From IMG/VR virus record IMGVR_UViG_3300017774_007187, positions 1 through 37,361 of that record: a stretch of DNA of 37,361 nt; one strand, written 5' to 3'. Source of the stretch: a virus (taxonomy: Duplodnaviria; Caudoviricetes). Positions 22,776 to 37,361 of the stretch are shown here, one piece after another. The notes beneath the pieces were generated by a model, which saw only the letters and a list, made by a program, of their open reading frames with translations, was not told where the DNA came from and made no database searches. Both the position numbers and the translations under genes were made by a program. Within the stretch, counting starts at the first letter, position 1. Each line of letters begins with the position of its first letter.

Positions 22776-25700
22776 TTATTTTAATTTAGTGAAACCATAT
22801 TTTGTAGAATGAAAATTATAATTTTTCTTAATTTCAGGAAACTGAAGGTCAATATCATACATTCTTAATTTTTGAATCTTACCATAAAAAGAGCCATCAA
22901 AATTATCTTTTATTATAGATTTTACACCTCTATTATATAGAATTTCATTTGTTAATGTATAAGAACTTAATCCTGTAAGTTGTATTACATCATATTGACG
23001 GAATTTTATTTCATCAAAATAAAAATTATAATAATATGTTATACCTGTAGGATTTTCAAATTTAATAACAGGTGTATATGATGTTAATCCTGTTATTTGA
23101 ATTGGTGTTACAAAATCAATTGATAAATAAACCCAAGTATTTGCTGATGTGGTTGTTGTGTATGTTGTTGATGATAATATCTCAATTTCATTGTTTAATG
23201 GATTTATGAAATCAAAATATATTCCCTTTTCAGAACCTGAATAATAACCATTATTATCATAAAAATAACCATCCAAAATGTATCTTTTATTTGGTTTTAT
23301 TTCCAAATCATTATCAAAAATTAATAAATTATCTGTATTTGAACTAAATGGTCTTATAGTAACCGTTGATAATGAATCAGGTAATAAATCATAGGTTTCA
23401 AAATTATAATTGTCAATATAAAATTTATAACTTTCGGTTATTGCAGTTGGATTTCCAACTTTTATTACAGGTGTATATGATGTTGTTGATGTTAAAGCAG
23501 TCGGTGTTGTAAATTCAATTCTTAAATCAACCCAAGTATTTGAAGATGTAGATGTTGTATATGTTATTGATGTTAATACAGTATTATTGTTAGATAATGA
23601 AGGTATAAAATCAAAATAAACATTTTTACTTTGCCCACTTAAATAACTATTATCATCATAAAATTTGGTAGATAATGCATATTTCTTATTTGTTTTAATA
23701 TTTATATTTTCAAATACAAAAATGTTATTTGTTGCTGATGAATAAGTTAAACCTGTTATTATATTCTGTTCAATTAATTTAAAGTTATCAAATCTAAAAT
23801 TATAAATTGATGGTGGACAATCTTCAAAGTCAACTATAGCTGCTAATGTATATGAAGTGCTACCTGTTATTGCAGAAGGTGTTCTAATTTCTGTTCTTAA
23901 AGTATACCAAGTATTAAAAGAATTAGAATCAGTATATGCTGTTTTACCAATAACTTGATTTTCTGGATTTAAGTTCAAGAAATTTAATTCAACATTTTTA
24001 TGATGACCAACAAAACTAAAAAAATCATTAAATCTTGATTCTATCTGATATAATTTATTTGGTAATATTGTTTTTTGATTTGTAAAACTAAATATTGTAT
24101 TTGTTGCAGATGAATATGTATTTCCTGTTAAATTTGTATTTCTTACATTTAATACAAATTTTGATGGATTACCTACCTCATTAAATGGTATTGTCTCTAA
24201 AGTGCCACCTGAAATATCTATTGTTAAACCTGATGTTACACCACTTGTATGACCACTATTTTCAAATTCACCAAAATTAGCATCATTTATTGTTAATGTA
24301 TTTGCTGTAAATTGTGTTATAACAAGTGGTTTTAATGAAAGTTTAAGTGAGGAATTTCCTGAATATTTTTCTTGATTTGAAATTTGTAATAAACCATTTA
24401 TTGTATCACTTGAAACATTTTCAATACTTGTTTCAAATGTTTTTGTTATTGAACTTGAAATAACATAACTAAATCCTGATAAGGATACAACAGGTAATAG
24501 ATTATAATCTTCAAAATAAATTTCATCAAAATAAAATTTATAATTTTGATTTATACCACTTGGATTTTCAATAAAAATATAAGGAGTATATGAACTATTT
24601 CCTGTTATTTGTAAAATAGGTGCATTAATATCAATCTTTAAATCATTCCAAGTATTTGCAGATGTGGTAGTTGTATATGTTAATGATGAAACAACTTTAT
24701 GTTCTGAATTTAATGGTGGTATAAATCCTATATAAACACCTTTAGTTTCTCCTGATTTATAACTATTATTATCATAAAATTTAGCACCAATAACATATTT
24801 TTTATTTATTTGTGGTATAAAACTTGATAATGTCAATAAAGAATTTGTTGTTGAACTAAATGTAAAAGATGTAAATGGTGTAAGAGGATAATTTGTAATT
24901 GTAAAATTATCAAAATAAAATTTATATCCTGAACTTATCCCACTTTTATTATAAAGTTTTGCTATTGGTGTATAAGTTGTTGAACCTGTTAATGCGCTTG
25001 GTGTTGTAAATGCAAATGTTAAATCAACCCAAGTATTTGCTGATGTGGTAGTTGTATATGTTAGTGAAGAAATTATAATATTTTCAGAATTCAAACCACC
25101 TGATATTTCTAATTTAACACCCTTATTTTGACCCGTTAAATAACTATTATTGTCAAAAAATTCAGTACTTAAAAAGTATTGAGTATTTGTTGTTATTGTA
25201 AAAGAACTAAATTTAACTAAAATATCTGTGGTTGATGATAAAGTAAACGAACTGAAACTATCTATTTTTTCATAATATAAATAATAATTATCGAAAAAGA
25301 ATTGATAACCTTGATTATATATTGTTAATGATGTTACACTCTCTCCACTTGTTCCACCTGTAAATATTAAAGTTGTTGTTGATGGTTCTGCTAATTCATC
25401 CTCATGGTCAATACTTGTTGAAAATCTATATTTGGTTGCACCTGTAATTACAGCAGGTGTTTTAAATGCAATTTTCAATTGCGCCCAAGTATTGGCAGAT
25501 GTTGTAGATGTATATGTTTGAGCAGATAAAATAGTAATTTCAGGATTTAATGGAGGGATTGTATCCAAATAAATTCCTTTGTTTGAACCAGTAAAAGTTT
25601 GTGCTATATTTTTTGTATAAGCAGAAATATTTATTACATTGCCACTAGAATTTGTACCTGTATAGGCAGTAACAAATGTATTTTGAGTTGACGAAGTAAA

Positions 25701-27479
25701 ATCATAAACATATCCTTCATAATAATAAAAACTATTTGGTAATAATGTTATTTCATCATTAAAATAAAATAGATTTTTATTAACACTAAAGAATGGGGCA
25801 TAACTATCTTTCTGTGGATATGGTGCTATTCTAAGGCTTACAGAACCACTCAATACAGGTGACAATTCAAAAAAGTATGCTGCCGTATTATTTGTATCAA
25901 AATCTAGTGGTGTTAAATATTCAAATGTGCCACTATTTCCATTTGTAATAACATTACCTGAGTAAAGTGTTAATCCTGTGGTAATTGTAATACCTGATGC
26001 ATCACCAAATAATTTTAATGATGTCGCACTTGAGTAATATTTATTTGAAAATTGTTCTGTGCTTGATGTTAATGTTGCTGCGCTTATTTCTGTAGTAAAA
26101 CCACTTATACTACCCTCAAAATTATATAATATTGTTCCACCTGATATATATTTAAATATTGTTTTAGTGGATGATGAGGATGCTGAAAGTAATAATGAAC
26201 TAAAACCTGAAAAAGTTTGTGCTGTTGTTGATGTTATTACAACATCAAGAATATTTGTACTAACTCCACTAGTAGAACCTGATTCAAATCCAATTGTTGT
26301 TCCAGTATTAAAAAAGTATGTGTAACTTGTTACATATCCTGACAAATATGTTATAGATGTAATTGGTTCAGTATTTTTTAATTTTAATGAATAATTTCCT
26401 GAATATGTTACTGCTGTACTTGATGTAATTATGATATTTAAAACATTACTTGTAACACCTGTTATTATGTTATTTTCAAATGTTCCATTGTTACCATCTA
26501 AAAAATAATTTGTATCACCTGTAAGCCTATATCTTTCAAAACTAAATTCATCAAAATAAAATTTATAATCTCTTCTTATACCACTTAGATTATTAAATTT
26601 AATAACAGGGATATATGATGTTAATCCAGTAATTGTTTTTGGTGAGAAGAATTCTAACCTTAAATCAACCCATGTATTTGCCGATGTACTTGTTGTATAT
26701 GTTAACGAAGAAACTATTGTGTTTTCAGAATCTAAATTACCTGATAATGCTAAATAAACACCCTTTGTTTGACCTGTGTTATAACTGTTTTCATCATAGA
26801 ATTTACCTTTATAAATATATTTTCTGTCAGGAATTAAATTTACTGAATTAAAAATTAATAAATTATCGCCTGTAGCACTAAATGTCAATCCTGAAGTAGA
26901 GACAATATTTTGCAAAATAGCAGGTGTATATTGTATCAAAGATACGTCATCAAAATAAAATTTATAATTTGAATTTAAACCACTTGTATTTGCTATTTTT
27001 ATTGTCGGAAAATAATTTGTATTTCCTGTTATTGCTGAAGGTGTAGAAAATTCTAAATATAAATCTACCCATTTTCTTTTATCAACAGTATTATCATATG
27101 TTTTAGATGTTAATATTGTTACTTCTGAATTTAAACTACCTGAAAATGTTAAAAATACAGATTTATTTACCCCCGAATAACTATTATCATCATAAAATTT
27201 AGCTGAATAAACATATTTCTTATCAGGTAAAATTGTTATACCTGATATTGGATTAAATAATAAAAGATTATTTGTATCTGATGTATATGGTATTGTTGAT
27301 GCGCTTGTATTAAATAATTTTAAAGTAGTTGAACATTGATAAGGATGGTCAGCACTAATTTGAACAGATGCATTATATATTTGAGTATTTACATTTGATA
27401 AATTATAAATATCACCAATTAAATTTGAACTCAGATTAAATGTTGCTGAAGTTGTTATTGCGGTTGGAATAATGTTCAT
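22776..27479 (-). CDS. C-terminal part of a giant LamG/CBM4_9-like repeat virion protein (joined to 27713..29215 across a frameshift)
   Basis: The frame stays open upstream to at least 27716. It carries eight KKY....KFYD...WVDL.LEF.TP...FYFD modules and ends in the LamG C-terminal strand FYGKIQKLRMY...L...EI..NY. Confidence 0.8.
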   Translation of the reverse strand: MNIIPTAITTSATFNLSSNLIGDIYNLSNVNTQIYNASVQISADHPYQCSTTLKLFNTSASTIPYTSDTNNLLLFNPISGITILPDKKYVYSAKFYDDNSYSGVNKSVFLTFSGSLNSEVTILTSKTYDNTVDKRKWVDLYLEFSTPSAITGNTNYFPTIKIANTSGLNSNYKFYFDDVSLIQYTPAILQNIVSTSGLTFSATGDNLLIFNSVNLIPDRKYIYKGKFYDENSYNTGQTKGVYLALSGNLDSENTIVSSLTYTTSTSANTWVDLRLEFFSPKTITGLTSYIPVIKFNNLSGIRRDYKFYFDEFSFERYRLTGDTNYFLDGNNGTFENNIITGVTSNVLNIIITSSTAVTYSGNYSLKLKNTEPITSITYLSGYVTSYTYFFNTGTTIGFESGSTSGVSTNILDVVITSTTAQTFSGFSSLLLSASSSSTKTIFKYISGGTILYNFEGSISGFTTEISAATLTSSTEQFSNKYYSSATSLKLFGDASGITITTGLTLYSGNVITNGNSGTFEYLTPLDFDTNNTAAYFFELSPVLSGSVSLRIAPYPQKDSYAPFFSVNKNLFYFNDEITLLPNSFYYYEGYVYDFTSSTQNTFVTAYTGTNSSGNVINISAYTKNIAQTFTGSNKGIYLDTIPPLNPEITILSAQTYTSTTSANTWAQLKIAFKTPAVITGATKYRFSTSIDHEDELAEPSTTTLIFTGGTSGESVTSLTIYNQGYQFFFDNYYLYYEKIDSFSSFTLSSTTDILVKFSSFTITTNTQYFLSTEFFDNNSYLTGQNKGVKLEISGGLNSENIIISSLTYTTTTSANTWVDLTFAFTTPSALTGSTTYTPIAKLYNKSGISSGYKFYFDNFTITNYPLTPFTSFTFSSTTNSLLTLSSFIPQINKKYVIGAKFYDNNSYKSGETKGVYIGFIPPLNSEHKVVSSLTYTTTTSANTWNDLKIDINAPILQITGNSSYTPYIFIENPSGINQNYKFYFDEIYFEDYNLLPVVSLSGFSYVISSSITKTFETSIENVSSDTINGLLQISNQEKYSGNSSLKLSLKPLVITQFTANTLTINDANFGEFENSGHTSGVTSGLTIDISGGTLETIPFNEVGNPSKFVLNVRNTNLTGNTYSSATNTIFSFTNQKTILPNKLYQIESRFNDFFSFVGHHKNVELNFLNLNPENQVIGKTAYTDSNSFNTWYTLRTEIRTPSAITGSTSYTLAAIVDFEDCPPSIYNFRFDNFKLIEQNIITGLTYSSATNNIFVFENINIKTNKKYALSTKFYDDNSYLSGQSKNVYFDFIPSLSNNNTVLTSITYTTSTSSNTWVDLRIEFTTPTALTSTTSYTPVIKVGNPTAITESYKFYIDNYNFETYDLLPDSLSTVTIRPFSSNTDNLLIFDNDLEIKPNKRYILDGYFYDNNGYYSGSEKGIYFDFINPLNNEIEILSSTTYTTTTSANTWVYLSIDFVTPIQITGLTSYTPVIKFENPTGITYYYNFYFDEIKFRQYDVIQLTGLSSYTLTNEILYNRGVKSIIKDNFDGSFYGKIQKLRMYDIDLQFPEIKKNYNFHSTKYGFTKLK
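23131..26705. repeat. Six dispersed ~35-bp intragenic repeats encoding TYTTxTSANTW
   Basis: CCAAGTATTTGCwGATGTrGTwGTTGTATATGTT-like copies start near 23131, 23531, 24648, 25028, 25484 and 26669. Confidence 0.75.
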
Positions 27480-27712
27480 TGAAAGAATAGAATTCCCCGA
27501 AACAAATGTTGTTGTAAAAACATTATTTAAAACATTTGTTGTTATTGCTGTTATAGAGGATGTTATAGTATTTGTATCACCATATTGTATTTGATTTGTA
27601 CCGCCTGTGATTAATATATTGTATTCATCAAATTTAAAATTATCAAAATAAAACTGATATAATCTTGTTGCTGCTGTTATGTCTTGTAATTTAACTACTG
27701 GTGTATATGATG

Positions 27713-29215
27713 TTAACCTGTAATTACTTGTGGTGTAATAAATTCTAATTTTAAATCAGACCAAACTTTTGGATTATCTGAATATGTTACTGATGTTACT
27801 ACTATATTTTCAGAATTTAAATTTTCAAAAAATCCAAGAGATAATTTATTATTATAACAATAGAAACTATCATTATCATAAAGTTTTGTATTAAAAATAT
27901 ATTTTTTATTTGCTTTAATTTCTACTTTATCATTAAATTTTAATAAATTTTTGCTTGTAGCAGAACTAAAAGTATATGCAGTATAATCGGTATATGTTAA
28001 TAATAATGATGTATTACCAGAATAAACTCTTGTTGAACTAGTTGTTATTAAACTATTAAATACATCGCTTGTAACACCTGTTATGCTACTAGATTCAAAT
28101 GTTCCAAATGTTCCACCGCTAAATAATGTTTGGCCTGTTACTAAATTATAAACATAGCCACTAGTATTTTCTAAAGTATAACCTGTTATATATTCAAAAG
28201 TTCTACCTGTAATAATATTCTGTGTATATGTTAATGATGAAATACCATCAACATATGAATGTTTTAATCCCCAAGTACCACCGCCCCAATTTATTGTGAA
28301 TGGAATGCCAATTTGTTTATCGGATTCAATGCTTAATGGCCTAAACCAAAAGAATTCTTCAGTATTATCCACTTCATGGAATAATTTACCATTTACAAAA
28401 ATTTTAAATGAACCATCTCTTCTTGGTGTACAATCAAGAAGATTTCCTGAATTATAATCTTTTATTTTTTTACAATATCTAAATGTTGTTACAATATTTG
28501 TCCAACCTGTTGTTTCAATTGGATTATCGCTTTTATATTCTGCTGCAAACCCAGATGTAATTAAATATCTTAATGATATTGTTTTATCATCATTGAATTT
28601 TAATCCTGCTGCATTATATTCTAAATCTTGAATATAGTTATTTGTATCATAACTTATTTTTGATGTATCGTCATTTGTTCCTGAAAATGCAACATTGAAT
28701 TTATTTTCAGATTTAGCACCTAAATACAAAAAGAAACCATCTGTAAATGAATTAATATTATCAAATGTATGTTGGTCAATATATAACCAAGTATCTATTG
28801 TAAATCCATTTTCGGTTCTGTATTTTGCAAGTTGATAGTTTTTACCATCTAATTTAAAAAATGTACTTAAATAACCTCCAGATAGTGATAATGAATTACC
28901 TTGAGTTATTCCCGTATTTAATTGTATCTGTGGAAATGTAGTATTTCCTTCTGAATCATTATATCCCAATCTTTGAAGGACTAGGTTTCTATCTCTTCTT
29001 GTAAAAGTTTTTGTTTCTGTTAAAGATGTTGCAAGACCAAAATCGTACATTGTTTGACCATATCCTGTTAAGGTAAGGTCAGACAAGATATAATTTTCCC
29101 AAAATGTTAAACTAGTTACAGAAAATCCTGCATTATTGTCAAATGACTTTATATTTGAAATGTCAAAATCAAATATAATGTTATCTTTGGTAAGTCCTGT
29201 ATTATTGAATATCAT
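27713..29215 (-). CDS. N-terminal part of the giant LamG/CBM-like repeat protein
   Basis: LamG-type FTIDTWL...WTNIV...FKIFVNGKL. Terminates mid-repeat at ITPQVITG-stop. Confidence 0.8.
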   Translation of the reverse strand: MIFNNTGLTKDNIIFDFDISNIKSFDNNAGFSVTSLTFWENYILSDLTLTGYGQTMYDFGLATSLTETKTFTRRDRNLVLQRLGYNDSEGNTTFPQIQLNTGITQGNSLSLSGGYLSTFFKLDGKNYQLAKYRTENGFTIDTWLYIDQHTFDNINSFTDGFFLYLGAKSENKFNVAFSGTNDDTSKISYDTNNYIQDLEYNAAGLKFNDDKTISLRYLITSGFAAEYKSDNPIETTGWTNIVTTFRYCKKIKDYNSGNLLDCTPRRDGSFKIFVNGKLFHEVDNTEEFFWFRPLSIESDKQIGIPFTINWGGGTWGLKHSYVDGISSLTYTQNIITGRTFEYITGYTLENTSGYVYNLVTGQTLFSGGTFGTFESSSITGVTSDVFNSLITTSSTRVYSGNTSLLLTYTDYTAYTFSSATSKNLLKFNDKVEIKANKKYIFNTKLYDNDSFYCYNNKLSLGFFENLNSENIVVTSVTYSDNPKVWSDLKLEFITPQVITG

Positions 29216-29268: not shown

Positions 29269-31797
29269 TTAATTTTGAAATTCTATGAAAGAATTTCCAT
29301 TTTCATCTTTATCAACCATAATTAGGTAATCAGGATTGATAATATCACCATATGCATGCTCAATAATTAGAATTTTATCAATATCTTGTTTTACTTTTGT
29401 CATTAGATTGATAAAATTGAAAGCATTTCTTTCAGAGAGTTTTCCAAAGAGTTCATCAAGTAAAAGAATATTTGGTCTTGACCTGTTATTCATATATCTT
29501 AATGCAAGTCTAAGACAAATACAAGCAAATACCCTTTCCATTCCTGACCCTGAAATAACATTTTGAATAATTTCAGGAGTATCTTTCTTTGACATTTGAT
29601 ATATTAAATCATTATCAAAAAATACATTGAAGTCAATATCTTCAGTATAACCTTGAAGATACATATTTACTTTTGGAATAAGTTTCTTTAATAGTGAAGT
29701 TGGAATGCCTTCTCTGTGAATACAATTCTGATATTCTTCTCTGATTAATTCTTGTCTTTGTTGCTCTAGATATTTCTCAATTGTGTCATTATAGTTTTTA
29801 ATTTCATTTTTAGCAAAATCAATATTATAATTAAATTGATTAACTTCCTTTACATATAATTCTTTTTCTTCTTTAAATTCTTGAACTTTTGTTTTATAAG
29901 TATCAATTTTAGATTGAATCTTTTTATTTTCTTCAACATAAACAACATTTATATCATATTTTGAAAGTATATCATTTTTTTGAGAAATCTTTAATTCAAT
30001 ATTTTCAATAAACATTGGAATATTATCATATTCCTGTTTGAATTTATTTCTTTTTTCAATCTCTTTAACGATTAATTCAATCTTAGCAATTTTCTCTTTT
30101 ACTTTTGTGATTGAAACACTTTCATTATTAACCTCATCTTCAAAATCTTTTATTGATGCCTTTTTATTTTCAATAATTAATTCTTTATCTTTAATTTCTT
30201 CTTTAATTTTAAAAATAATATCATTGCAATCATTTATTAAAGTTTTATATTTATTTTCATATAATTTATTTTCAATTTCTTTATTTAAGTTTTCAATCTT
30301 TTCCTTGATTACTTTAATTGCATTTTTATCCTTCTCACGATTACAAGTAGGACATATTTTACTATTTTCTAAACTATAGATTTCTTTTTCTATTACTCTT
30401 TTATCTATGTCAATACTTGCTTCAATTCTAGAAAGAGTTAATGTTTCTTTATGTATTTTACCATTTAAAATACCAATATCATTTGTAATATCATTAATTT
30501 CTTTATTTAAATCTTTAATTTGATTGTTTTTTGAAATTAACCAACCATTAAATGAATTTGATTTATCCTTTAAAGAATTATAAAGTTCTTCATCCAAAAC
30601 AAACTTATTGAGTTCTTCAATTTGTTTTAAAAGGTCTTTTTGCGACCTTTTTCTTTCTTCTTTATCATTAATAAGTTTATTAATTTCATTTTTAACATCA
30701 ACAATATTAAGATTAGTTATTTGAGAATCAATGGGTTTTAATGACTTAATTGTATTTTCAACATGAATTTCTCCATTTGAAATTCTTTCATTTAAAACTT
30801 CTATTTTATTTTTTCTGTCATCAATATTTATCTTATTTTCTTCAATAATAATTTTTGCATCCTCAATAAGTTGATTATATTTATCAACAGAGATATTTAA
30901 AAGACTTTCTTTTTTGTATTCATTCTTTTTATAATCTTTGAATGCGTTAAGTTTCTTTTCAAAGATGTCAAGACCTGTATCTCTAAGAATTGAATCTAAG
31001 AATTTTGCATGGTCAGTTGTGAGAATATCATTAAGCGTATCTGCATTAATCAATGATTTTGTAATAAACTCATCAAAATCACCAATTGATTGTTCGATTA
31101 GTCTTTGTGTATTAACTTTGTCCTGTTCTGATAAATTATTCTCATCAATTATTTCATTATTTGAATCTAATCTATTGAAATATGTTTTAGTTGAGCAAGA
31201 AGTTATTTCATTATGTGTCTTATTCCACTTTCTTTCAGTTCTTCTTCTAATGGCATAGTCTTCTCCATTGATTTCAACAATTAATTGAACTTCTGAGTAA
31301 TCTTTTTGATTATTGCTGTTGATAAATTTATTATCTCTGTTCTTCTCTTTTTTGAGAGTATCAAAGGTAGTACCATAAAGACCATATGTAACTGAATTTA
31401 AAATATTTGAATTGTGAACTAATATATTATTTGCGTAGTATTGACCAACTCCTTCAACTTGAATATCAACTAAGTCTTCATAAACATGAGAATTTAGTGA
31501 AATATATTTAATATCCTCTAAACCATCTTTTGTTTGTACTTTAATTTGACCAAATCCATATCTTAACTCTTCTAAAGTTTTGAATAATTTTAAGTCGGTC
31601 CTAAATAAATGTTTATTTGAAACAGATATACGTTTACCCTTTTCAGTTTCAAGAGTCCAATATTGAGAATTTTTTGCTGTTACACCATAAGAAAGTATTT
31701 TTGAAAAACCGAATGGTGATTCAACTTCAATATTTAATTCAGTAAGTAATTCTTTTAAGAATTTTAAATTTTCAATTTTTATCTGTTTCTCTTTCAT
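29269..31797 (-). CDS. sbcC: SbcC/Rad50 (gp46-like) C-terminal half, preceded by split intein C fragment
   Basis: After HN|S: SNILNSVTYGLYG, long coiled coils, CPTC zinc hook, SGSGMER signature, LLLDELFG Walker B and IIEH switch. No Walker A lysine. ATG 31797 preferred over TTG 31821. Confidence 0.92.
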   Translation of the reverse strand: MKEKQIKIENLKFLKELLTELNIEVESPFGFSKILSYGVTAKNSQYWTLETEKGKRISVSNKHLFRTDLKLFKTLEELRYGFGQIKVQTKDGLEDIKYISLNSHVYEDLVDIQVEGVGQYYANNILVHNSNILNSVTYGLYGTTFDTLKKEKNRDNKFINSNNQKDYSEVQLIVEINGEDYAIRRRTERKWNKTHNEITSCSTKTYFNRLDSNNEIIDENNLSEQDKVNTQRLIEQSIGDFDEFITKSLINADTLNDILTTDHAKFLDSILRDTGLDIFEKKLNAFKDYKKNEYKKESLLNISVDKYNQLIEDAKIIIEENKINIDDRKNKIEVLNERISNGEIHVENTIKSLKPIDSQITNLNIVDVKNEINKLINDKEERKRSQKDLLKQIEELNKFVLDEELYNSLKDKSNSFNGWLISKNNQIKDLNKEINDITNDIGILNGKIHKETLTLSRIEASIDIDKRVIEKEIYSLENSKICPTCNREKDKNAIKVIKEKIENLNKEIENKLYENKYKTLINDCNDIIFKIKEEIKDKELIIENKKASIKDFEDEVNNESVSITKVKEKIAKIELIVKEIEKRNKFKQEYDNIPMFIENIELKISQKNDILSKYDINVVYVEENKKIQSKIDTYKTKVQEFKEEKELYVKEVNQFNYNIDFAKNEIKNYNDTIEKYLEQQRQELIREEYQNCIHREGIPTSLLKKLIPKVNMYLQGYTEDIDFNVFFDNDLIYQMSKKDTPEIIQNVISGSGMERVFACICLRLALRYMNNRSRPNILLLDELFGKLSERNAFNFINLMTKVKQDIDKILIIEHAYGDIINPDYLIMVDKDENGNSFIEFQN
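31411..31797 (-). mobile_element. Split intein C fragment (IntC, ~129 aa, mini-intein without endonuclease)
   Basis: EVESPFGF, block B SVSNKHLF, VQTKDG, block F LVDIQVEGVGQYYAN, block G ILVHN followed by Ser+1. Block A is missing. Confidence 0.92.
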
Positions 31798-32347
31798 TTT
31801 CAATGATTTTAAATATTTCAATAATATTTGTTATTCTATTTTTAGAATCAAGATTTTTCTTTTCAGGGTCAAAAAGAATAATTTTTGTATTATCAAAAGA
31901 TAGTTCTGATAATTTTGGATTTGCAGTTAATATATAATCAAATTTATCATCAACATATTCCATAAACTTATTGTAGAATCTAATTTCATCAAAATAAAAT
32001 GATGCTGAAAAGTTTGATATATAAAAAGCAGTAAGACTTCTCATCTTAACACCCTCTCTTGAAATAATAACAATTCTAAAATTATTATCTTTCAATTCAG
32101 GATATAGTTGATTTAATTCTGCTATTACTTCTTTTGAAGGTAGTGTTGATTTTCCAAACAATTCATATGAATATTGAAAAATAAAATCTTCTAATTCATT
32201 CTCTTCAAAAGTGAATGATAGTAATGGATTAAAAGGGTCGATTGGTTCTTTAATATTTCTATCAGCAAATTCAATTTGATAATATGTTTGAAATTTTTTT
32301 ATAAAATCTCTAAGTATACCGTTTACTTCAATTGCAAAAGTTTTCAT
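31772..32347 (-). CDS. HAD-fold 5'(3')-deoxyribonucleotidase-like protein with degenerate motif I
   Basis: MKTFAIEVNGILRDF (cf. IxIDxDGVLxD), RIVIISRE, DYILTANP. ATG 32347. Stop overlaps the IntC-SbcC start. Confidence 0.6.
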   Translation of the reverse strand: MKTFAIEVNGILRDFIKKFQTYYQIEFADRNIKEPIDPFNPLLSFTFEENELEDFIFQYSYELFGKSTLPSKEVIAELNQLYPELKDNNFRIVIISREGVKMRSLTAFYISNFSASFYFDEIRFYNKFMEYVDDKFDYILTANPKLSELSFDNTKIILFDPEKKNLDSKNRITNIIEIFKIIENERETDKN

Positions 32348-32362
32348 TTTTTTGTCTTTTAA

Positions 32363-32370
32363 CAAATATA
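32363..32370 (-). promoter_or_regulatory. Bacteroidota-type -7 element TATATTTG for the HAD / IntC-SbcC unit
   Basis: Exact TAnnTTTG match 15 nt upstream of ATG 32347. Confidence 0.55.
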
Positions 32371-32409
32371 AAAGTTTTTGTCGTATTTTAGTTGAAATAT
32401 TAAAAAATA

Positions 32410-33492
32410 ATGAACAGACTAGAAAAATTAAATGAATTGCTAAATAATGTTAGTAGCAATAATTACAACATTTATTTGTATGTTCCTTCTATTCCTGACA
32501 CAGTTTATGCGATGGCAGTAGAGGAAATATACAATATCTGCCTTTTCTTGAGAAAAAACAATTACAATGCATTTTTGATTACAGGTGAAGATGAAAAAGA
32601 CTCTGAATTTAAAATCCCTGCTTTTCTTAATGAAGAATTAAGAGCATTACCACACCTTTCACCAAAGAAAGATAATATCTCAGTTTCTGCAAGTGATATA
32701 ATGATTGTGCCTGAATTCTTTGTCAATGTAATGCATCAAATTTCTGATGCTAAGATTCAATGTGAAAAGATTGTTCTTTGTCAATCTCAAACTTATATGC
32801 TTGATTCTCTACCACCAAATCATACTTGGGCTGCTTGGGGATTCAATACCATTCTTACAACATCTGACCAACTTAAAGAATTTATTCAAAGAAATAGTAG
32901 AGTAAATTATAACATTGAAACTTACACTATTGGTATTCCTGATTATTTTAAACCAAAGAAAATCAAAAAACCAATTATTATGTATTTTTCAAGAGAGGAT
33001 GCAAATATTAAGAGGTTATCAAAGATTTTCTTTATGAAATATCCTGAACTTTCTTGGGTTTTATTTGAAAGGGTTCAAGGTGCTGAAAACTTTTTAACAA
33101 GAGAACAACTTGCTGAAAAAATGGGTGAAATTCCTGTACTTCTCTGGCTTGATAAGGATGCAGGTTTTGGTACACTTCCACTTGAAGCAATGAAGAGTGG
33201 TGCTGTTGTAGTGGGTATGATTCCTGAGATTGAAAAGAATTATACAAAGAAAGATGATACGGCAATTTGGTCAAACTCAATTGAAATTCTTGCTGAACAA
33301 CTTGGTGTTGTTATTAAAGAATGGATGGTTGATAATATTCCATCAGTTGTTTATGAAAACATGGAAAAGATTACAACTGATTATACAGTTGAAAATCACG
33401 AAAAAACACTAATCTCTGCTTTTTCAAATATTATTGAAAGAAGAAGAACTTTAATCGAGCAAACTATAGAAAATATTCAAAATGAAAAATAA
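32410..33492 (+). CDS. GT-B (GT4-like) glycosyltransferase
   Basis: DIMIVPE, GIPDYFKP and AGFGTLPLEAMKSGAVVVG. Confidence 0.8.
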   Translation: MNRLEKLNELLNNVSSNNYNIYLYVPSIPDTVYAMAVEEIYNICLFLRKNNYNAFLITGEDEKDSEFKIPAFLNEELRALPHLSPKKDNISVSASDIMIVPEFFVNVMHQISDAKIQCEKIVLCQSQTYMLDSLPPNHTWAAWGFNTILTTSDQLKEFIQRNSRVNYNIETYTIGIPDYFKPKKIKKPIIMYFSREDANIKRLSKIFFMKYPELSWVLFERVQGAENFLTREQLAEKMGEIPVLLWLDKDAGFGTLPLEAMKSGAVVVGMIPEIEKNYTKKDDTAIWSNSIEILAEQLGVVIKEWMVDNIPSVVYENMEKITTDYTVENHEKTLISAFSNIIERRRTLIEQTIENIQNEK

Positions 33493-34291
33493 TACATTAG
33501 ATTTAACAGTAATCATTCCAATTAATAAATTGGAAAATGATTTGGATAAACAACTATTTGGTGAAGCAATCAAATCTGTTTTTAATCAAAACAATAGTAT
33601 TTTACCAAAAGAAGTAATTGTTATTACAAATACAGAAACAAGTAAATTAATTGATTTTAAAGAATTTGACTCTGTTAGATTTGTAATCAATGATGAAACT
33701 TCTGATAATGTTCAATCACAGATTAATAAAGCTGTAGCTGAAGTTAAAACATCTTTCTTTATGGTGTTAGATTCTGATGATGAACTTACAAACTTCTATA
33801 TGTCAAATCTATCAATACATATGGAAGAAATGACAAATGTGGATATGTTCTTGCCTTTAATTGCTGATGTAACTCTTGATAAAAAAATTCATCGCTATAT
33901 TAATGAAATTTGTTGGGCAAAGGATATGACCAATGATAGACATGGTTTTCTTACAATGGAAACATTGATGAATTATAATCTTGTATCAATCAATGGTGCT
34001 GCGATTAGAAAAGAAAAATTTGAAGAAGCAGGTGGTTTGAAGGAATCTATGAAACTTAGTTTTGTTTATGAATTCCTAATGCGTTTTACAAATATTGATG
34101 GTATTGCATATGCTGTTCCTAAGATTGGTTATTTAAGAAAGATGGGCAGAGAGAATTCATATCTTGCTCAACAAGCTGAGATGGAACTTGATGAGGTTAC
34201 TTTTTGGTGGAATCTAGCTAAAAAAGAATATGTTTGGCCTCATGATAGAAATAAACCATATGTAAAAAAGCAAGAAGCACCGATTATCTAA
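33482..34291 (+). CDS. GT-A (GT2-like) glycosyltransferase
   Basis: LTVIIP, AIKSV..Q, IN.AV, FMVLDSDDE (DxD) and FEEAGGL. Confidence 0.85.
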   Translation: MKNNTLDLTVIIPINKLENDLDKQLFGEAIKSVFNQNNSILPKEVIVITNTETSKLIDFKEFDSVRFVINDETSDNVQSQINKAVAEVKTSFFMVLDSDDELTNFYMSNLSIHMEEMTNVDMFLPLIADVTLDKKIHRYINEICWAKDMTNDRHGFLTMETLMNYNLVSINGAAIRKEKFEEAGGLKESMKLSFVYEFLMRFTNIDGIAYAVPKIGYLRKMGRENSYLAQQAEMELDEVTFWWNLAKKEYVWPHDRNKPYVKKQEAPII

Positions 34292-34293
34292 TA

Positions 34294-35091
34294 ATGGTAG
34301 AGGAAGTAAAAAAGGGTAGGCGTGGCAGAAAAGCAAAACCTGGGTCTATTAAGGAGTATTTTACTGATGTAACAGAAAAGGCTATTATCAAGTATAATAG
34401 CCCTGACTGTTCATTGGAAGAAAAAAATGAAATATATGAGAAAGAAATCCATAAGGCTCTTAAAAAACTTGCATATTTTACTGCTAAATCTTACTTTTTA
34501 TATTTTTCTAAGCGTTATACGATAGAAGATATGGAAAATGACCTTTTGATTTTTGCCTTCAATAACCTTCATATGTTTAATCCCGAAAAGATTAATAAAC
34601 ATGGTGTAAAATCAAAGGCATTTTCCTACTTCTCTACCATTTGTAAAAATGAAGCAAAACACATATCTGAGAGAAATTTTAACCAAGACAAATCAAGTGA
34701 TGATGTAGTTGAAAATATAGATTCATTTGAAAGGAACATAAACCTATCATATAAAATAAATGAAAATCTTGATGAAGATAATGATAATAATTATATTAAA
34801 ATTGTTTTCTTGGGGATGTGCAATGAAATTAAAAATAGAATAGAATCTGATAAAACTTTAAAAGAAATTGATGTAAATATTGGTTATTCTTTGATTTCTA
34901 TAATTGAAAATTTTAAATATATTAATGAACCAACTGAATCAAAAATGAGTTTGTTCTTTATTAATAATAAAGTTACAGACATGATTTGTGAAATAACAAA
35001 TAATAGATATAAAAAGCAAGAGATTAAGAAGTCATTGAAATCATTTAAGTGTTTATATCAAAAACTTAAAGATGACTATAATTCATTCTGA
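34294..35091 (+). CDS. Putative phage sigma factor (gp55-like late sigma)
   Basis: EYFTDVTEKAIIKYN...LKKLA...DME.D...FNPEK...KAFSYFSTICKN resembles gp55/sigma region 2 (F.PEK..N.FAYFT.I..N). Confidence 0.65.
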   Translation: MVEEVKKGRRGRKAKPGSIKEYFTDVTEKAIIKYNSPDCSLEEKNEIYEKEIHKALKKLAYFTAKSYFLYFSKRYTIEDMENDLLIFAFNNLHMFNPEKINKHGVKSKAFSYFSTICKNEAKHISERNFNQDKSSDDVVENIDSFERNINLSYKINENLDEDNDNNYIKIVFLGMCNEIKNRIESDKTLKEIDVNIGYSLISIIENFKYINEPTESKMSLFFINNKVTDMICEITNNRYKKQEIKKSLKSFKCLYQKLKDDYNSF

Positions 35092-35231
35092 GGTTTATTA
35101 CTAGAACAACCACAATCCTTGGTCCTTGATGTGTTTTTCCATACAAATACAATAAGAGCAGAAATACTACTAATCCAATAATTAGTAAAAAAATATTGTA
35201 ATCCAAAAAAAGTTAAAAGTGGGTATAACAT
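35076..35231 (-). CDS. Small membrane protein with CGC motif (51 aa, not in the ORF track)
   Basis: MLYPLLTFFGLQYFFTNYWISSISALIVFVWKNTSRTKDCGCSSNKPQNEL, with CTATTTATA 10 nt upstream. Confidence 0.6.
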   Translation of the reverse strand: MLYPLLTFFGLQYFFTNYWISSISALIVFVWKNTSRTKDCGCSSNKPQNEL

Positions 35232-35233
35232 GG

Positions 35234-35250
35234 CTATTTATTATAAATAG
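35234..35250. promoter_or_regulatory. Overlapping bidirectional putative late promoters
   Basis: Near-palindrome CTATTTATTATAAATAG gives CTATTTATT on + and CTATTTATA on -, between divergent starts 35231 and 35257. Confidence 0.6.
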
Positions 35251-35256
35251 AATATA

Positions 35257-35559
35257 ATGGATGAATTTAATATGTATGCAGATTTCATAACTGATAATAG
35301 TTTTGCAACTGTACCCTTTTTAAAAATACCTGAGACCGATGATGATGCATATGTTGAATGGACAGTTGGTAGTCGTTTAGATAAGATTGCATTTATATAC
35401 TATAATAATGCAGCATTAGGTAAATTTATTTTATTGGCTAATCCAGAATATATATCAGAGGCTGACTTTAATGTTGGTGATATTATTCGCATACCATTGC
35501 CAAAAGAAAATATGTTTAACTTTGTTCGTAGCAGAATAGCACAATCAGAACTTTTTTAA
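35257..35559 (+). CDS. LysM-like baseplate wedge protein (T4 gp53 / P2 gpX-like)
   Basis: GSRLDKIAFIYYNNAALGKFILLANP...VGDIIRIP. Confidence 0.75.
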   Translation: MDEFNMYADFITDNSFATVPFLKIPETDDDAYVEWTVGSRLDKIAFIYYNNAALGKFILLANPEYISEADFNVGDIIRIPLPKENMFNFVRSRIAQSELF

Positions 35560-35798
35560 ATCTTTTCTCCTTGATATCTACTCTTAATAAATTCTATAAA
35601 TGCTTTTCCTGTTGATTCGGCATTTTGTAACTGATTGTAATCATTGGGATTAACATTATCATATTGATACTTTAAACCACCCTTTACAAATGTTACTTGT
35701 AAAGTATTATTTGTTGTATTATATATTGTTGATAAAATGTTTGATGATTCATAAGTTGCTTCAATGATTCCATCTTCTTGTTTTACGTTTGTTGTCAT
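35556..35798 (-). CDS. KTSC domain protein
   Basis: SSNILSTIYN....TLQVTF..G..YQYDNV....Y..L.NAESTGKAF. Confidence 0.9.
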   Translation of the reverse strand: MTTNVKQEDGIIEATYESSNILSTIYNTTNNTLQVTFVKGGLKYQYDNVNPNDYNQLQNAESTGKAFIEFIKSRYQGEKI

Positions 35799-36895
35799 AA
35801 ATTTAGTAATTCTTCGTGTAGTTCTGATATATTATCAAAAGTTTTATTGTTTTCTATATTAAATTTTACTTTTAAATCTTCAATTAAATTATCACTTGGT
35901 TTTTGAATCTCCATCAAAACATCAGTTCTGCCCTTTCTTTTGATAGCATCATCAATTTTATCAAGTTCATTGGTTGTTATGATAAATATAACATCATTTG
36001 GCGTATAAATCCCATCCAATACATTTAAAATGCAAGAAAGTGATATTTTTACATCAGAATCTTTCTTTTCATCTTTCCTATTGATATCATCCAATAAACA
36101 ATCAATATCTTCGAATAATACAATTGATTTTTTGGGTCTATCAGAAATCAATGCAATCAGATTTGCATCTGTCATATCTTTTGATAGATTAACAGCCATT
36201 ATATCTCTTTTGGTATAGTTTGATATACCTAATGACAATGATGATTTACCTGTTCCTGGAGGTCCATAGAATAGATATGTTCTTTTATATCTAATACCAT
36301 ATTTATCATATTTTTCTTTTGAGCAATTAAATCTATCTAAATCTTTTTTAAGGAATTCAGATACATTATTATCAAGATAAATATTATCAAATGTCTTGTT
36401 TATAACCTTACCTGCACATCTAATTTCACCATTAAAGTTATAAAAGTATTTTATATATTTATTACCATATGTTATATCAACATAATCCATTAATTCTTTC
36501 AAAATAGACTTATTCCAACAAAAAATCATAAACATATGTTTATTATTCTTATATGGTGTCATACTATTTTGTATATTTTCAGCATTTTTCAATACTAAGA
36601 ACCTATTTCCTTTAAATTTAAAGTAAATAAATCCTGAGTTATAAAACATATTAACGTCAAAGTTATCTGAACTTATAAAATTATCATATAATGTCCTATA
36701 ATAAAGATTTTTAATAGAACTATTTTTTTCTGATAAAACAAAGTTTTGAAAAGAATAAAAGAAAAAAGAACTTTCTTCAATTTTCATTGAACAAATAATC
36801 CTATCTCTTAATGTAGTTAATACAAAAACAAAAAATTGTTTGAAGTAAACTAATGTACCTCCAAGAATGAGTGTTATTAATACTGTGTTATCCAT
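35795..36895 (-). CDS. BCS1-like membrane-anchored AAA+ ATPase
   Basis: N-terminal TM, GIRYKRTYLFYGPPGTGKSS, LFEDIDC, SLSCILNVLDG and TTN...IDDAIKRKGRTD. Confidence 0.85.
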   Translation of the reverse strand: MDNTVLITLILGGTLVYFKQFFVFVLTTLRDRIICSMKIEESSFFFYSFQNFVLSEKNSSIKNLYYRTLYDNFISSDNFDVNMFYNSGFIYFKFKGNRFLVLKNAENIQNSMTPYKNNKHMFMIFCWNKSILKELMDYVDITYGNKYIKYFYNFNGEIRCAGKVINKTFDNIYLDNNVSEFLKKDLDRFNCSKEKYDKYGIRYKRTYLFYGPPGTGKSSLSLGISNYTKRDIMAVNLSKDMTDANLIALISDRPKKSIVLFEDIDCLLDDINRKDEKKDSDVKISLSCILNVLDGIYTPNDVIFIITTNELDKIDDAIKRKGRTDVLMEIQKPSDNLIEDLKVKFNIENNKTFDNISELHEELLNL

Positions 36896-36896
36896 T

Positions 36897-37361
36897 TTAT
36901 TTTAAAAATTCAGGTAAATATCCAAGTTTTGCAATTATTTCTTCTTCATTGTATCTAATATTAATCTTTGTTTCAGGATGAACACATTTGCCAACCTGAT
37001 TCTCACCAAAAATTTGAATAATACCATTCTTATCACTTAAATCAAGTTCATATCTTTCTCCATGTGACTTGAAATTATCTAATACAATTTTCTTTATTTT
37101 CCAATCGTAGAATTGATTCTCAACATCTTTCTCAATGAGTGAACTAATTTCACTATCAAGTGTTAAAACATCATTAATAAAGTCTTCATTATGATTCTTT
37201 GCCTTTAAGAAACTAATGAATTCTTGTCTTACACTATCATTGTTGTTTAAATCAATAGTTTCATCAAATTGTTTAATCTTTAATGATTTATTTAAAATCT
37301 TTGATTTATCAAATTTAATTGTGGCGAATTCGCCATATTTAGATTCTAAATACTTCTTAAT
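36897..37361 (-). CDS. sbcC: SbcC/Rad50 N-terminal half fused to split intein N fragment (5'-truncated by the window edge, not in the ORF track)
   Basis: Hand translation: ...DWKIKKIVLDNFKSHGERYELDLSDKNGIIQIFGENQVGK-CVHPETKINIRYNEEEIIAKLGYLPEFLK-stop. The frame is open to the window end. Confidence 0.92.
   Translation of the reverse strand: MKKYLESKYGEFATIKFDKSKILNKSLKIKQFDETIDLNNNDSVRQEFISFLKAKNHNEDFINDVLTLDSEISSLIEKDVENQFYDWKIKKIVLDNFKSHGERYELDLSDKNGIIQIFGENQVGKCVHPETKINIRYNEEEIIAKLGYLPEFLK
36900..36986 (-). mobile_element. Split intein N fragment (IntN, 29 aa)
   Basis: Block A CVHPETKINI directly after the Walker A lysine, with a stop 29 codons later. Confidence 0.9.

Follow-up and report, generated by a model that had tools for sequence, protein, structure and literature searches.

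The 37,361-nt viral contig analyzed here (IMG/VR record IMGVR_UViG_3300017774_007187, hereafter the window) carries the gene of a phage Mre11-Rad50 (SbcD-SbcC) protein in two halves, each fused to one part of a split intein. Both halves are encoded on the minus strand and are separated by a gap of 5,099 bp holding seven open reading frames (ORFs), four of them on the opposite strand (Table 1). The N-half ORF (37361-36897), open at its 5' end, ends in GENQVGK, followed by exactly 29 amino acids (aa) starting with CVHPETKINI and by a TAA stop; it had been missed by the ORF track, and the initial annotation described it correctly (36897..>37361, minus) but overlooked that it is truncated at the contig end. 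The C-half begins with an ATG at 31797 that opens an ORF of 842 aa, the first 129 aa making up the intein's C-terminal portion (IntC) and the remaining 713 aa the C-extein, as had been proposed for a second ORF about 5.1 kb further on with intein blocks B, F and G followed by the remainder of Rad50.

The residues of a class 1 intein are complete, namely Cys1 on the N-terminal part (IntN), the block-B His63, the block-F Asp111 and His128-Asn129 on IntC, and Ser+1 on the C-extein; IntC shows the motifs SNKH, DLVDIQV and ILVHN, after which comes Ser+1. The block-B His and the block-F Asp are present in 139 of 139 members of the family alignment, for which the closing His-Asn was an entry filter. 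The ratio of non-synonymous to synonymous substitutions (dN/dS), pooled for six close relatives (15 pairs that are not independent), is 0.15 in IntN and 0.27 in IntC, against 0.05 and 0.08 in the exteins, and counts as a further sign of function. No second intein was found in the window. With two ORFs, intact catalytic residues and a seamless extein junction, trans-splicing of the halves is predicted as likely, and the proposal of a split intein at the Lys/Ser junction of Walker A is borne out by these features and by their recurrence in related phages.

Table 1. Features of the split mre11-rad50 locus and of the genes between its halves (window coordinates).
Feature	Coordinates	Strand	Remarks
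N-extein, 3' part, 125 aa, cut by contig end	36987..37361	-	linker after Mre11/SbcD nuclease and first Rad50 strands
Walker A, first part, GENQVGK	36987..37007	-	profile columns 405-411
IntN, 29 aa	36900..36986	-	Cys1, beta1-beta2 (~11 aa), predicted helical tail; stop at 36897-36899
AAA ATPase, weak BCS1_N match	35795..36895	-	absent in relative L003
KTSC domain protein	35556..35798	-	E 3e-15
LysM-like / baseplate-wedge-like protein, 100 aa	35257..35559	+	phrog_7145, E 3e-7
Weak sigma-70-like match, 265 aa	34294..35091	+	TIGR02937, E 0.006, under cut-off
Glycosyltransferase family 2	33482..34291	+	E 2e-6
360-aa protein	32410..33492	+	no convincing family match; glycosyltransferase-like by eye only; kept in 6/6 related multi-gene loci
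Promoter-like motif AATACGA-N-TATATTTG	32363..32387	-	before the unit carrying the IntC gene; putative function
191-aa protein	31772..32347	-	no family match; HAD/nucleotidase-like by eye only; 26-nt overlap with IntC start
IntC, 129 aa	31411..31797	-	beta3-alpha1 start, block B SNKH (60-63), block F Asp111, His128-Asn129
C-extein, 713 aa	29269..31410	-	Ser+1, rest of Rad50/SbcC lobe I, coiled coil, zinc hook CPTC, signature, Walker B, H-loop

The host protein had been taken to be Rad50 alone, which has to be corrected to a fused Mre11-Rad50: all of the 8 related loci have an N-half of 445-448 aa, in which a metallophosphoesterase domain precedes the start of Rad50 (Pfam metallophosphoesterase, E 4e-11; SbcD model, E 3e-12, under the cut-off of that model), and the close relatives P0003 and P0004 have the five Mre11 phosphoesterase motifs, the matching part lying off the window contig. 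The N-extein part present in the window matches phrog_77 (E 2.8e-5) and is 88-95% identical to the end of the 445-aa SbcD fusions of relatives; the C-extein matches the same family with E 4e-28. A search for longer homologues returned 423 proteins, and among the 120 listed 119 are intein-free SbcD-SbcC fusions with GxNxxGK(S/T), the other one (P0085) having the same intein, at the same site, in contiguous form. When placed on a profile built from 118 intein-free fusions, the N-extein ends with its Lys in column 411 and Ser+1 takes column 412, so splicing would give a 416 + 713 = 1,129-aa SbcD-SbcC fusion. The coiled coil, CxxC hook, signature, Walker B/D-loop and H-loop are all present (in the 842-aa C-half, CPTC at 482, ISGSGMER at 748, LLLDE at 778 and IIEH at 811), and Walker A is complete only across the splice junction. 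It is therefore expected that ATP binding needs splicing, in line with the earlier suggestion that neither half binds ATP alone, the cut falling between the Walker A Lys and Ser. Mre11/Rad50 fusion proteins are known, e.g. Mimivirus R555, which has the same domain order as the predicted spliced product, and in the main text of that report the words 'intein' and 'split' occur 0 times (PMC3175470).

Other breaks and insertions were seen in these fusions. In L151:10001-13767 and L154:10001-13710 the SbcD-SbcC fusion is broken, with no intein, just after GDIH, with an ORF of ~100 aa in the gap; P0034 and P0038 carry a different, longer intein after the GNHD motif of the SbcD nuclease.

The split layout is no misassembly, because it recurs in 8 of 8 related viral loci (two of which, L005 and L006, look like the same phage): the N-half ends in IntN and then a stop in all of them, IntN having 29 aa in seven and 32 aa in one, and in 6/6 loci reaching far enough the IntC gene lies 4.0-5.8 kb beyond IntN, with 5-8 genes in the gap and some gene turnover. 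The assembly of the window has the window itself as its sole contig. In comparisons with contigs of four sequencing runs, where no single piece spans the whole stretch, the listed pieces bridge the IntC start in 4/4 runs (4 studies) and the IntN stop in 2/4, and none of the 10 joints listed links IntN to IntC, so the misassembly of a contiguous intein, named beforehand as the outcome that would overturn the proposal, did not turn up. Three larger contigs of relatives (91-170 kb, 40-65% complete) contain nothing of this gene beyond its two halves. An artefact or a rejoining at the RNA level, that is, a contiguous intein gene that is misassembled, has a recoded stop or is trans-spliced as RNA, could be supported by relatives that look split only until TAG is read as Gln (L079, L080, L085), but the stop here is TAA, the gap measures 5.1 kb with seven genes, the layout recurs in independent assemblies and in 6/6 sequences IntC starts with an ATG of its own at an identical position; we regard it as extremely improbable.

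Elsewhere the window encodes, among others, a lysozyme, M15 peptidase, SNF2 helicase and adenylosuccinate synthetase, and its relatives sit on contigs, viral or metagenomic, as long as 241 kb, so the source is likely a large phage. Sequencing runs holding window DNA are mostly freshwater metagenomes, and no RNA run is among those listed.

The contiguous relative L080, read with TAG as Gln, gave a predicted model with a mean predicted local distance difference test (pLDDT) value of 97.2, in which DSSP assigns residues 7-11 to beta2, 14-21 to an inserted helix, 34-36 to beta3 and 37-47 to alpha1. When aligned to contiguous relatives, the window break falls after the inserted helix and before beta3. 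The best Foldseek match of this model was the intein VidaL (E 1e-10, template modelling score 0.80); compared by VIA the two gave Z 21.4 and a root-mean-square deviation of 1.7 over 137 aligned residues, the NrdJ-1 and RecA inteins being tied within 1 Z. IntN and IntC of the window were also modelled as one complex, with a score of 0.79 against 0.02 for the best control, the mark used being attained by 51 of 78 solved pairs and by 2 of 108 mismatched ones. The runs share at least 93% of contacts, the partner pLDDT is at least 80, and IntC 5-8 runs antiparallel to IntN 6-10. Both predicted models show the Hint horseshoe, and the fragments thus model as a single Hint fold, as the initial annotation had anticipated. 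Nevertheless, similarity to inteins of known structure may account for the complex score, as two halves taken from a known fold tend to pass on that ground; the score therefore speaks for the fit to a Hint fold rather than for binding.

Two atypical split sites are described for natural inteins, S1 after beta2 (VidaL, PolB16) and S2 after alpha1 (AceL-TerL, GOS-TerL), natural S1-split inteins being rare in print, with VidaL and PolB16 as the ones named in the accessible text of PMC13014065. The alignment, DSSP, the modelled contacts and the alignment to PDB 6vgv all assign the window intein to S1, since IntC begins with strand beta3 and helix alpha1; the S2 type was ruled out, alpha1 sitting on IntC. 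Hence the previous typing as a short-IntN, TerL-like intein holds as regards a natural and atypical split, but the type is that of VidaL and PolB16 and not of TerL. At 29 aa, IntN is longer than the ~15-16 aa expected for S1.

VidaL (PDB 6vgv/6vgw) shares the Cys1 type and a natural S1 split right after beta2, and its chain aligns to the family profile over 6-144, the 'MIEEKKVTVQEL' start being in register with the start of the window's IntC. On the other hand, identity between both inteins is only ~25%, the window's host is Mre11-Rad50, and its IntN has an extra, predicted helical tail that accounts for ~17 of the 29 residues, whereas the IntN of VidaL has 16 aa (PMC13014065, accessible text). 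PolB16 OarG shares the natural S1 split but has Ser1/Ser+1, a 15-aa IntN, a DNA polymerase as host and a dispensable block-B His (PMC10189870, accessible text), in contrast to the Cys1/Ser+1 and the invariant block-B His found here. As far as the accessible reports go, AceL-TerL, GOS-TerL and Cat likewise have a short IntN (25-37 aa), a long IntC and a phage origin, but are split after alpha1 (S2), which in the window lies on IntC.

To define the family, pattern scans yielded 66 distinct junction sequences that were sorted by eye: 39 S1-split SbcC/gp46 N-halves, 3 S2-split, 2 canonically split and 8 contiguous (2 of them TAG-recoded), the rest being one cut by a contig end, two with SMC- or SbcC-like hosts and 11 with other hosts (10 MutS-like, 1 terminase-like). 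IntN is 26-40 aa long in 38 of the 39 unique S1 sequences and 17 aa in a tail-less one (L124). A profile search against 1.84 billion cluster representatives returned 1,478 hits, and the best 150 of these comprise 82 with IntC first and an SbcC-like extein (a few of which may be S2 instead of S1), 28 in which an SbcC protein contains the intein, 39 of other or unassigned kind and 1 without a domain; the +1 residue of the 110 SbcC-hosted members among these 150 is Ser in 104 and Thr in 6. The junction pattern had no match in 185,579 prokaryote genomes. Annotated phage records gave only weak matches to the IntC queries (3 records in one search, 162 in another), the label gp46 being absent among 30 listed of the 162, which are terminase-labelled, hypothetical or unannotated. 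For P0007 no locus was found.

The same Walker A site also hosts S2-split inteins (L088, L096, L120; IntN 36-39 aa), which lie outside the S1 clade on the intein tree, and canonically split ones (L115, L128; IntN ~100 aa), giving three split positions at one insertion site. L079, L080:8813-12412 and L085 belong to phage reading TAG as Gln, with an SbcD-SbcC fusion and a one-piece intein. P0173 and P0188 are contiguous inteins that look re-fused: both keep the end motif of a split IntN plus a short linker, and P0173 in addition has a Met where IntC usually begins. L016:9878-10096 and L033:9935-10144 encode a gp46 N-half with a 29-aa IntN directly after gp47; no gp46 C-half was detected on these contigs (139 and 212 kb, 58% and 82% complete) with either the IntC profile or phrog_77, and the split may be fully uncoupled there. 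At a distance of ~8 kb there is a RecA/UvsX C-half that starts IntC-like and is accompanied by a nuclease-like ORF. In L026:9386-10102 a DnaB/gp41-like helicase is cut at Walker A with a 30-aa S2-type IntN, an IntC-like match lying ~1 kb downstream, and contiguous inteins occupy Walker A of MutS-like proteins (host assigned by eye) in L046, L047, L056, L062, L065, L070, L077, L105, L106 and L116, several of them on giant-virus contigs.

As an alternative, the intein might be vestigial or a mere dimerization clip, holding the halves in a non-covalent complex with no splicing. This would agree with the intein-less fractures inside the nuclease part in L151 and L154, with an intein-less split SbcD described in the accessible text of Dassa et al. 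(PMC2677866), and with a dN/dS that is higher in IntC than in the exteins. However, no splicing residue has been lost, the +1 position holds Ser or Thr in each of the 110 SbcC-hosted members, and the cut separates adjacent Walker A Lys and Ser, where an intein left unspliced should break the P-loop. We find a non-splicing clip very unlikely.

The arrangement recalls the fractured genes of Dassa et al. (2009, PMC2677866), whose gene-breaking model proceeds, in the accessible text, by invasion, fracture, endonuclease loss and uncoupling. There too a gene of DNA metabolism is cut by a split intein and, as in relatives of the window, a Vsr-like or other nuclease-like ORF lies between the halves, often overlapping the IntC start; their gp41-7 has lost the endonuclease, as the window lineage presumably has. 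The hosts they name are gp41, IMPDH, DnaE, NrdA, NrdJ, ligase, terminase and one gene of unknown identity; no intein is present in their SbcD-like case. The window differs from all these cases in lacking an endonuclease and in carrying seven unrelated genes in the gap. Its halves retain their original order and direction, and each is joined to a part of the intein; no trace of a homing endonuclease was detected in six frames of the window with a profile of 13 gap ORFs (no positive score). In contrast, a single nuclease-like ORF lies in the gap of 14 of the 29 S1 loci for which both halves are known; one further locus has a remnant ORF, seven have gaps of 35-189 bp free of ORFs, and the seven of the window's clade hold several unrelated genes. 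L042 and L051 have near-identical inteins, lacking and having an endonuclease-like ORF respectively, and the gap of L042 consists of the two flanks joined. A 362-aa ORF before IntC in L124 was considered as an endonuclease and rejected, as it does not belong to the endonuclease family of the gap ORFs.

Thus relatives present a series of contiguous inteins, inteins split around a homing-endonuclease-like gene, loci that have lost the endonuclease and loci with unrelated genes inserted, and the window can be placed between steps III and IV of the model of Dassa et al. (PMC2677866, accessible text). In a tree of 141 N-extein sequences eight split N-halves are scattered among intein-free fusions, which fits homing, while the window's lineage forms one all-split clade of 9 (support 1.0), contiguous P0085 is sister to split P0014, and split L037 stands alone on a long branch. 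On the intein tree (89 of 145 sequences) the split or contiguous state changes at least 20 times, and a single clade of contiguous inteins was rejected by the approximately unbiased test (p 0.0002; quick tree, simple model), changes that would fit repeated re-fusion or repeated splitting alike.

Regarding expression, the halves likely belong to two transcription units, because four opposite-strand genes separate them. The motif TATATTTG is found before the C-half unit in the window and in 4/5 relatives, and 4 nt before the ATG of the N-half in 6/7 relatives; it fits the Bacteroidetes -7 element TANNTTTG (consensus from the accessible text of PMC6847099), a Bacteroidota host being presumed. No Shine-Dalgarno match was found for any of the 37 window genes, and a sigma-70 promoter scan gave 83 sites versus 65.6 +/- 8.5 in shuffles, a difference that does not inform on promoters. 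From these motifs we infer a Bacteroidota host and co-expression of the halves: the same promoter-like motif before both points to co-expression and not to gating.

A second motif, TATTTATA, occurs upstream of 6 of the 37 genes (~0.45 expected) between 9665 and 29215 of the window, several of them probable structural genes, and is likely a phage late promoter. The stretch 22776-29215 encodes two repeat proteins rich in Thr and Ser, of 500 and 1567 aa, neither of which matches a family; relatives L003 and L009 have one longer ORF across this region.

The initial annotation had proposed that the split acts as an AND gate, which turns out to be only a logical result of the split, and nothing was found in support of a regulatory gate in these analyses. 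A domesticated switch, in which the split is kept to time or condition Mre11-Rad50 activation by separate expression or conditional splicing, would find some support in the separate putative transcription units with an opposite-strand block between them, in the fixation of the split throughout a deep clade that has kept no endonuclease (its N-halves are 53-94% identical), and in the functional reading given to the clustering of inteins at P-loops (PMC4760082, accessible text). Against it, the halves share a promoter-like motif and the likely late motif is not before the window's C-half unit; moreover, both trees show a mixture of split, contiguous and intein-free alleles, as for a selfish element, and fixation follows from the inserted genes with no need of any benefit. 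Such a switch therefore appears unlikely.

Our best reading, which we hold with considerable confidence, is that the phage encodes Mre11-Rad50 as two genes cut at the Walker A Lys/Ser, whose S1-type intein likely trans-splices them to a nuclease-ATPase of ~1,130 aa, and that the split is likely the fixed remnant of a selfish intein plus homing-endonuclease element and not a switch. An endonuclease gene would have invaded the beta2-beta3 loop of the intein and the cassette would have spread by homing; in the window lineage the endonuclease would then have been lost and 5-8 unrelated genes would have come between the halves. Genes inserted there block a simple re-fusion or precise loss, and the sequence comparisons are best explained by a fractured-gene element that presumably became fixed, with obligatory trans-splicing. 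Each half would be transcribed from its own host-type promoter, and in the predicted complex beta2 of IntN would pair with beta3 of IntC and the tail of IntN would pack against IntC, so that one Hint fold is completed; contacts between the exteins may assist, and the native pair may lean on them.

In class 1 inteins an N-S shift at Cys1 is followed by transfer to Ser+1, Asn cyclization and an O-N shift, a chemistry that here would give GENQVGK-SNIL. Mre11-Rad50, like gp46-gp47, processes DNA ends for recombination and recombination-dependent replication, and by analogy the product would do the same.

Several points weigh against this reading. The start of the window's own N-half lies off the contig, and IntN alone has no match in Pfam, NCBIfam or PHROG. 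IntC matches the gp41-1 intein (E 3.6e-5) and, as hoped for in the proposed Hint-domain hidden Markov model check, Pfam Intein_splicing (PF14890, E 0.002), but it stays below the curated cut-offs (18.5 bits versus 35.8; NCBIfam TIGR01443, 11.6 versus 15.6). In this respect full-length profile scores are penalized because IntN and IntC are scored separately, and PF14890 gives no match in three relative contigs although IntC is present there, so its sensitivity is low. IntC drifts much faster than the exteins, with 57-69% identity to the window's IntC versus ~91%, which could reflect relaxed constraint. The gap ORFs of relatives are nuclease-like by motifs, with weak profile matches (a nuclease-type PHROG label in 5/15, a Pfam nuclease in 0/2), the order of events rests on unrooted FastTree or quick trees with many weak nodes, and TANNTTTG is weakly enriched over the window (3/37 starts versus ~1.2 expected).

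As for the genes between the halves, the region 35618-36895 is variable: the AAA ATPase gene, missing from L003, is also skipped by a contig of run X5, and L005/L006 add a 202-aa gene. Within 10 kb in 17 loci of related fusions none of the glycosyltransferase, sigma-like, LysM-like and 191-aa genes was found, and only single weak KTSC and AAA matches were obtained.

Trans-splicing, S1 splits, fractured genes, P-loop inteins (PMC4760082, accessible text) and SbcD-SbcC fusions were already known; new against the literature searched are the host, the IntN tail and the uncoupled layout, and the size of the family (82 of the best 150 clusters) is absent from it. No description of a split intein in SbcC, Rad50 or gp46 was found in that literature, which largely leaves aside subscription papers, InBase, patents and supplements, and gp46 is not mentioned in the accessible text of PMC12707363 and PMC10189870; supplements (Table S1 of Dassa et al.; Tables S5-S7 of PMC4760082), InBase or patents could list SbcC/gp46 inteins.

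A short IntN is what protein semisynthesis needs, and the family offers dozens of divergent natural pairs together with natural tail variants of 17 to 40 aa; the 29-aa IntN itself, suggested in the initial annotation as an engineering tool, may be a candidate for such use. A more far-reaching proposal, rather unlikely when taken as a whole, would make phage Rad50/gp46 the largest natural reservoir of S1-split inteins (at least 80 clusters at 50% identity versus two named in papers), with the IntN tail as an evolved clamp for fast, tight and mutually orthogonal trans-splicing, a cycling between split and re-fused states, and, in this clade, a split domesticated into an activation of Mre11-Rad50 in two separately controlled parts. 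In annotations these genes carry plain SbcD and plain SbcC labels, and gp46 N-halves of 60-70 aa are easily overlooked. Finally, one insertion site displays every stage of the gene breaking described by Dassa et al., as well as probable re-fusion and three split positions, and with it the origin of split genes and the point at which a split becomes irreversible become testable at a single site.

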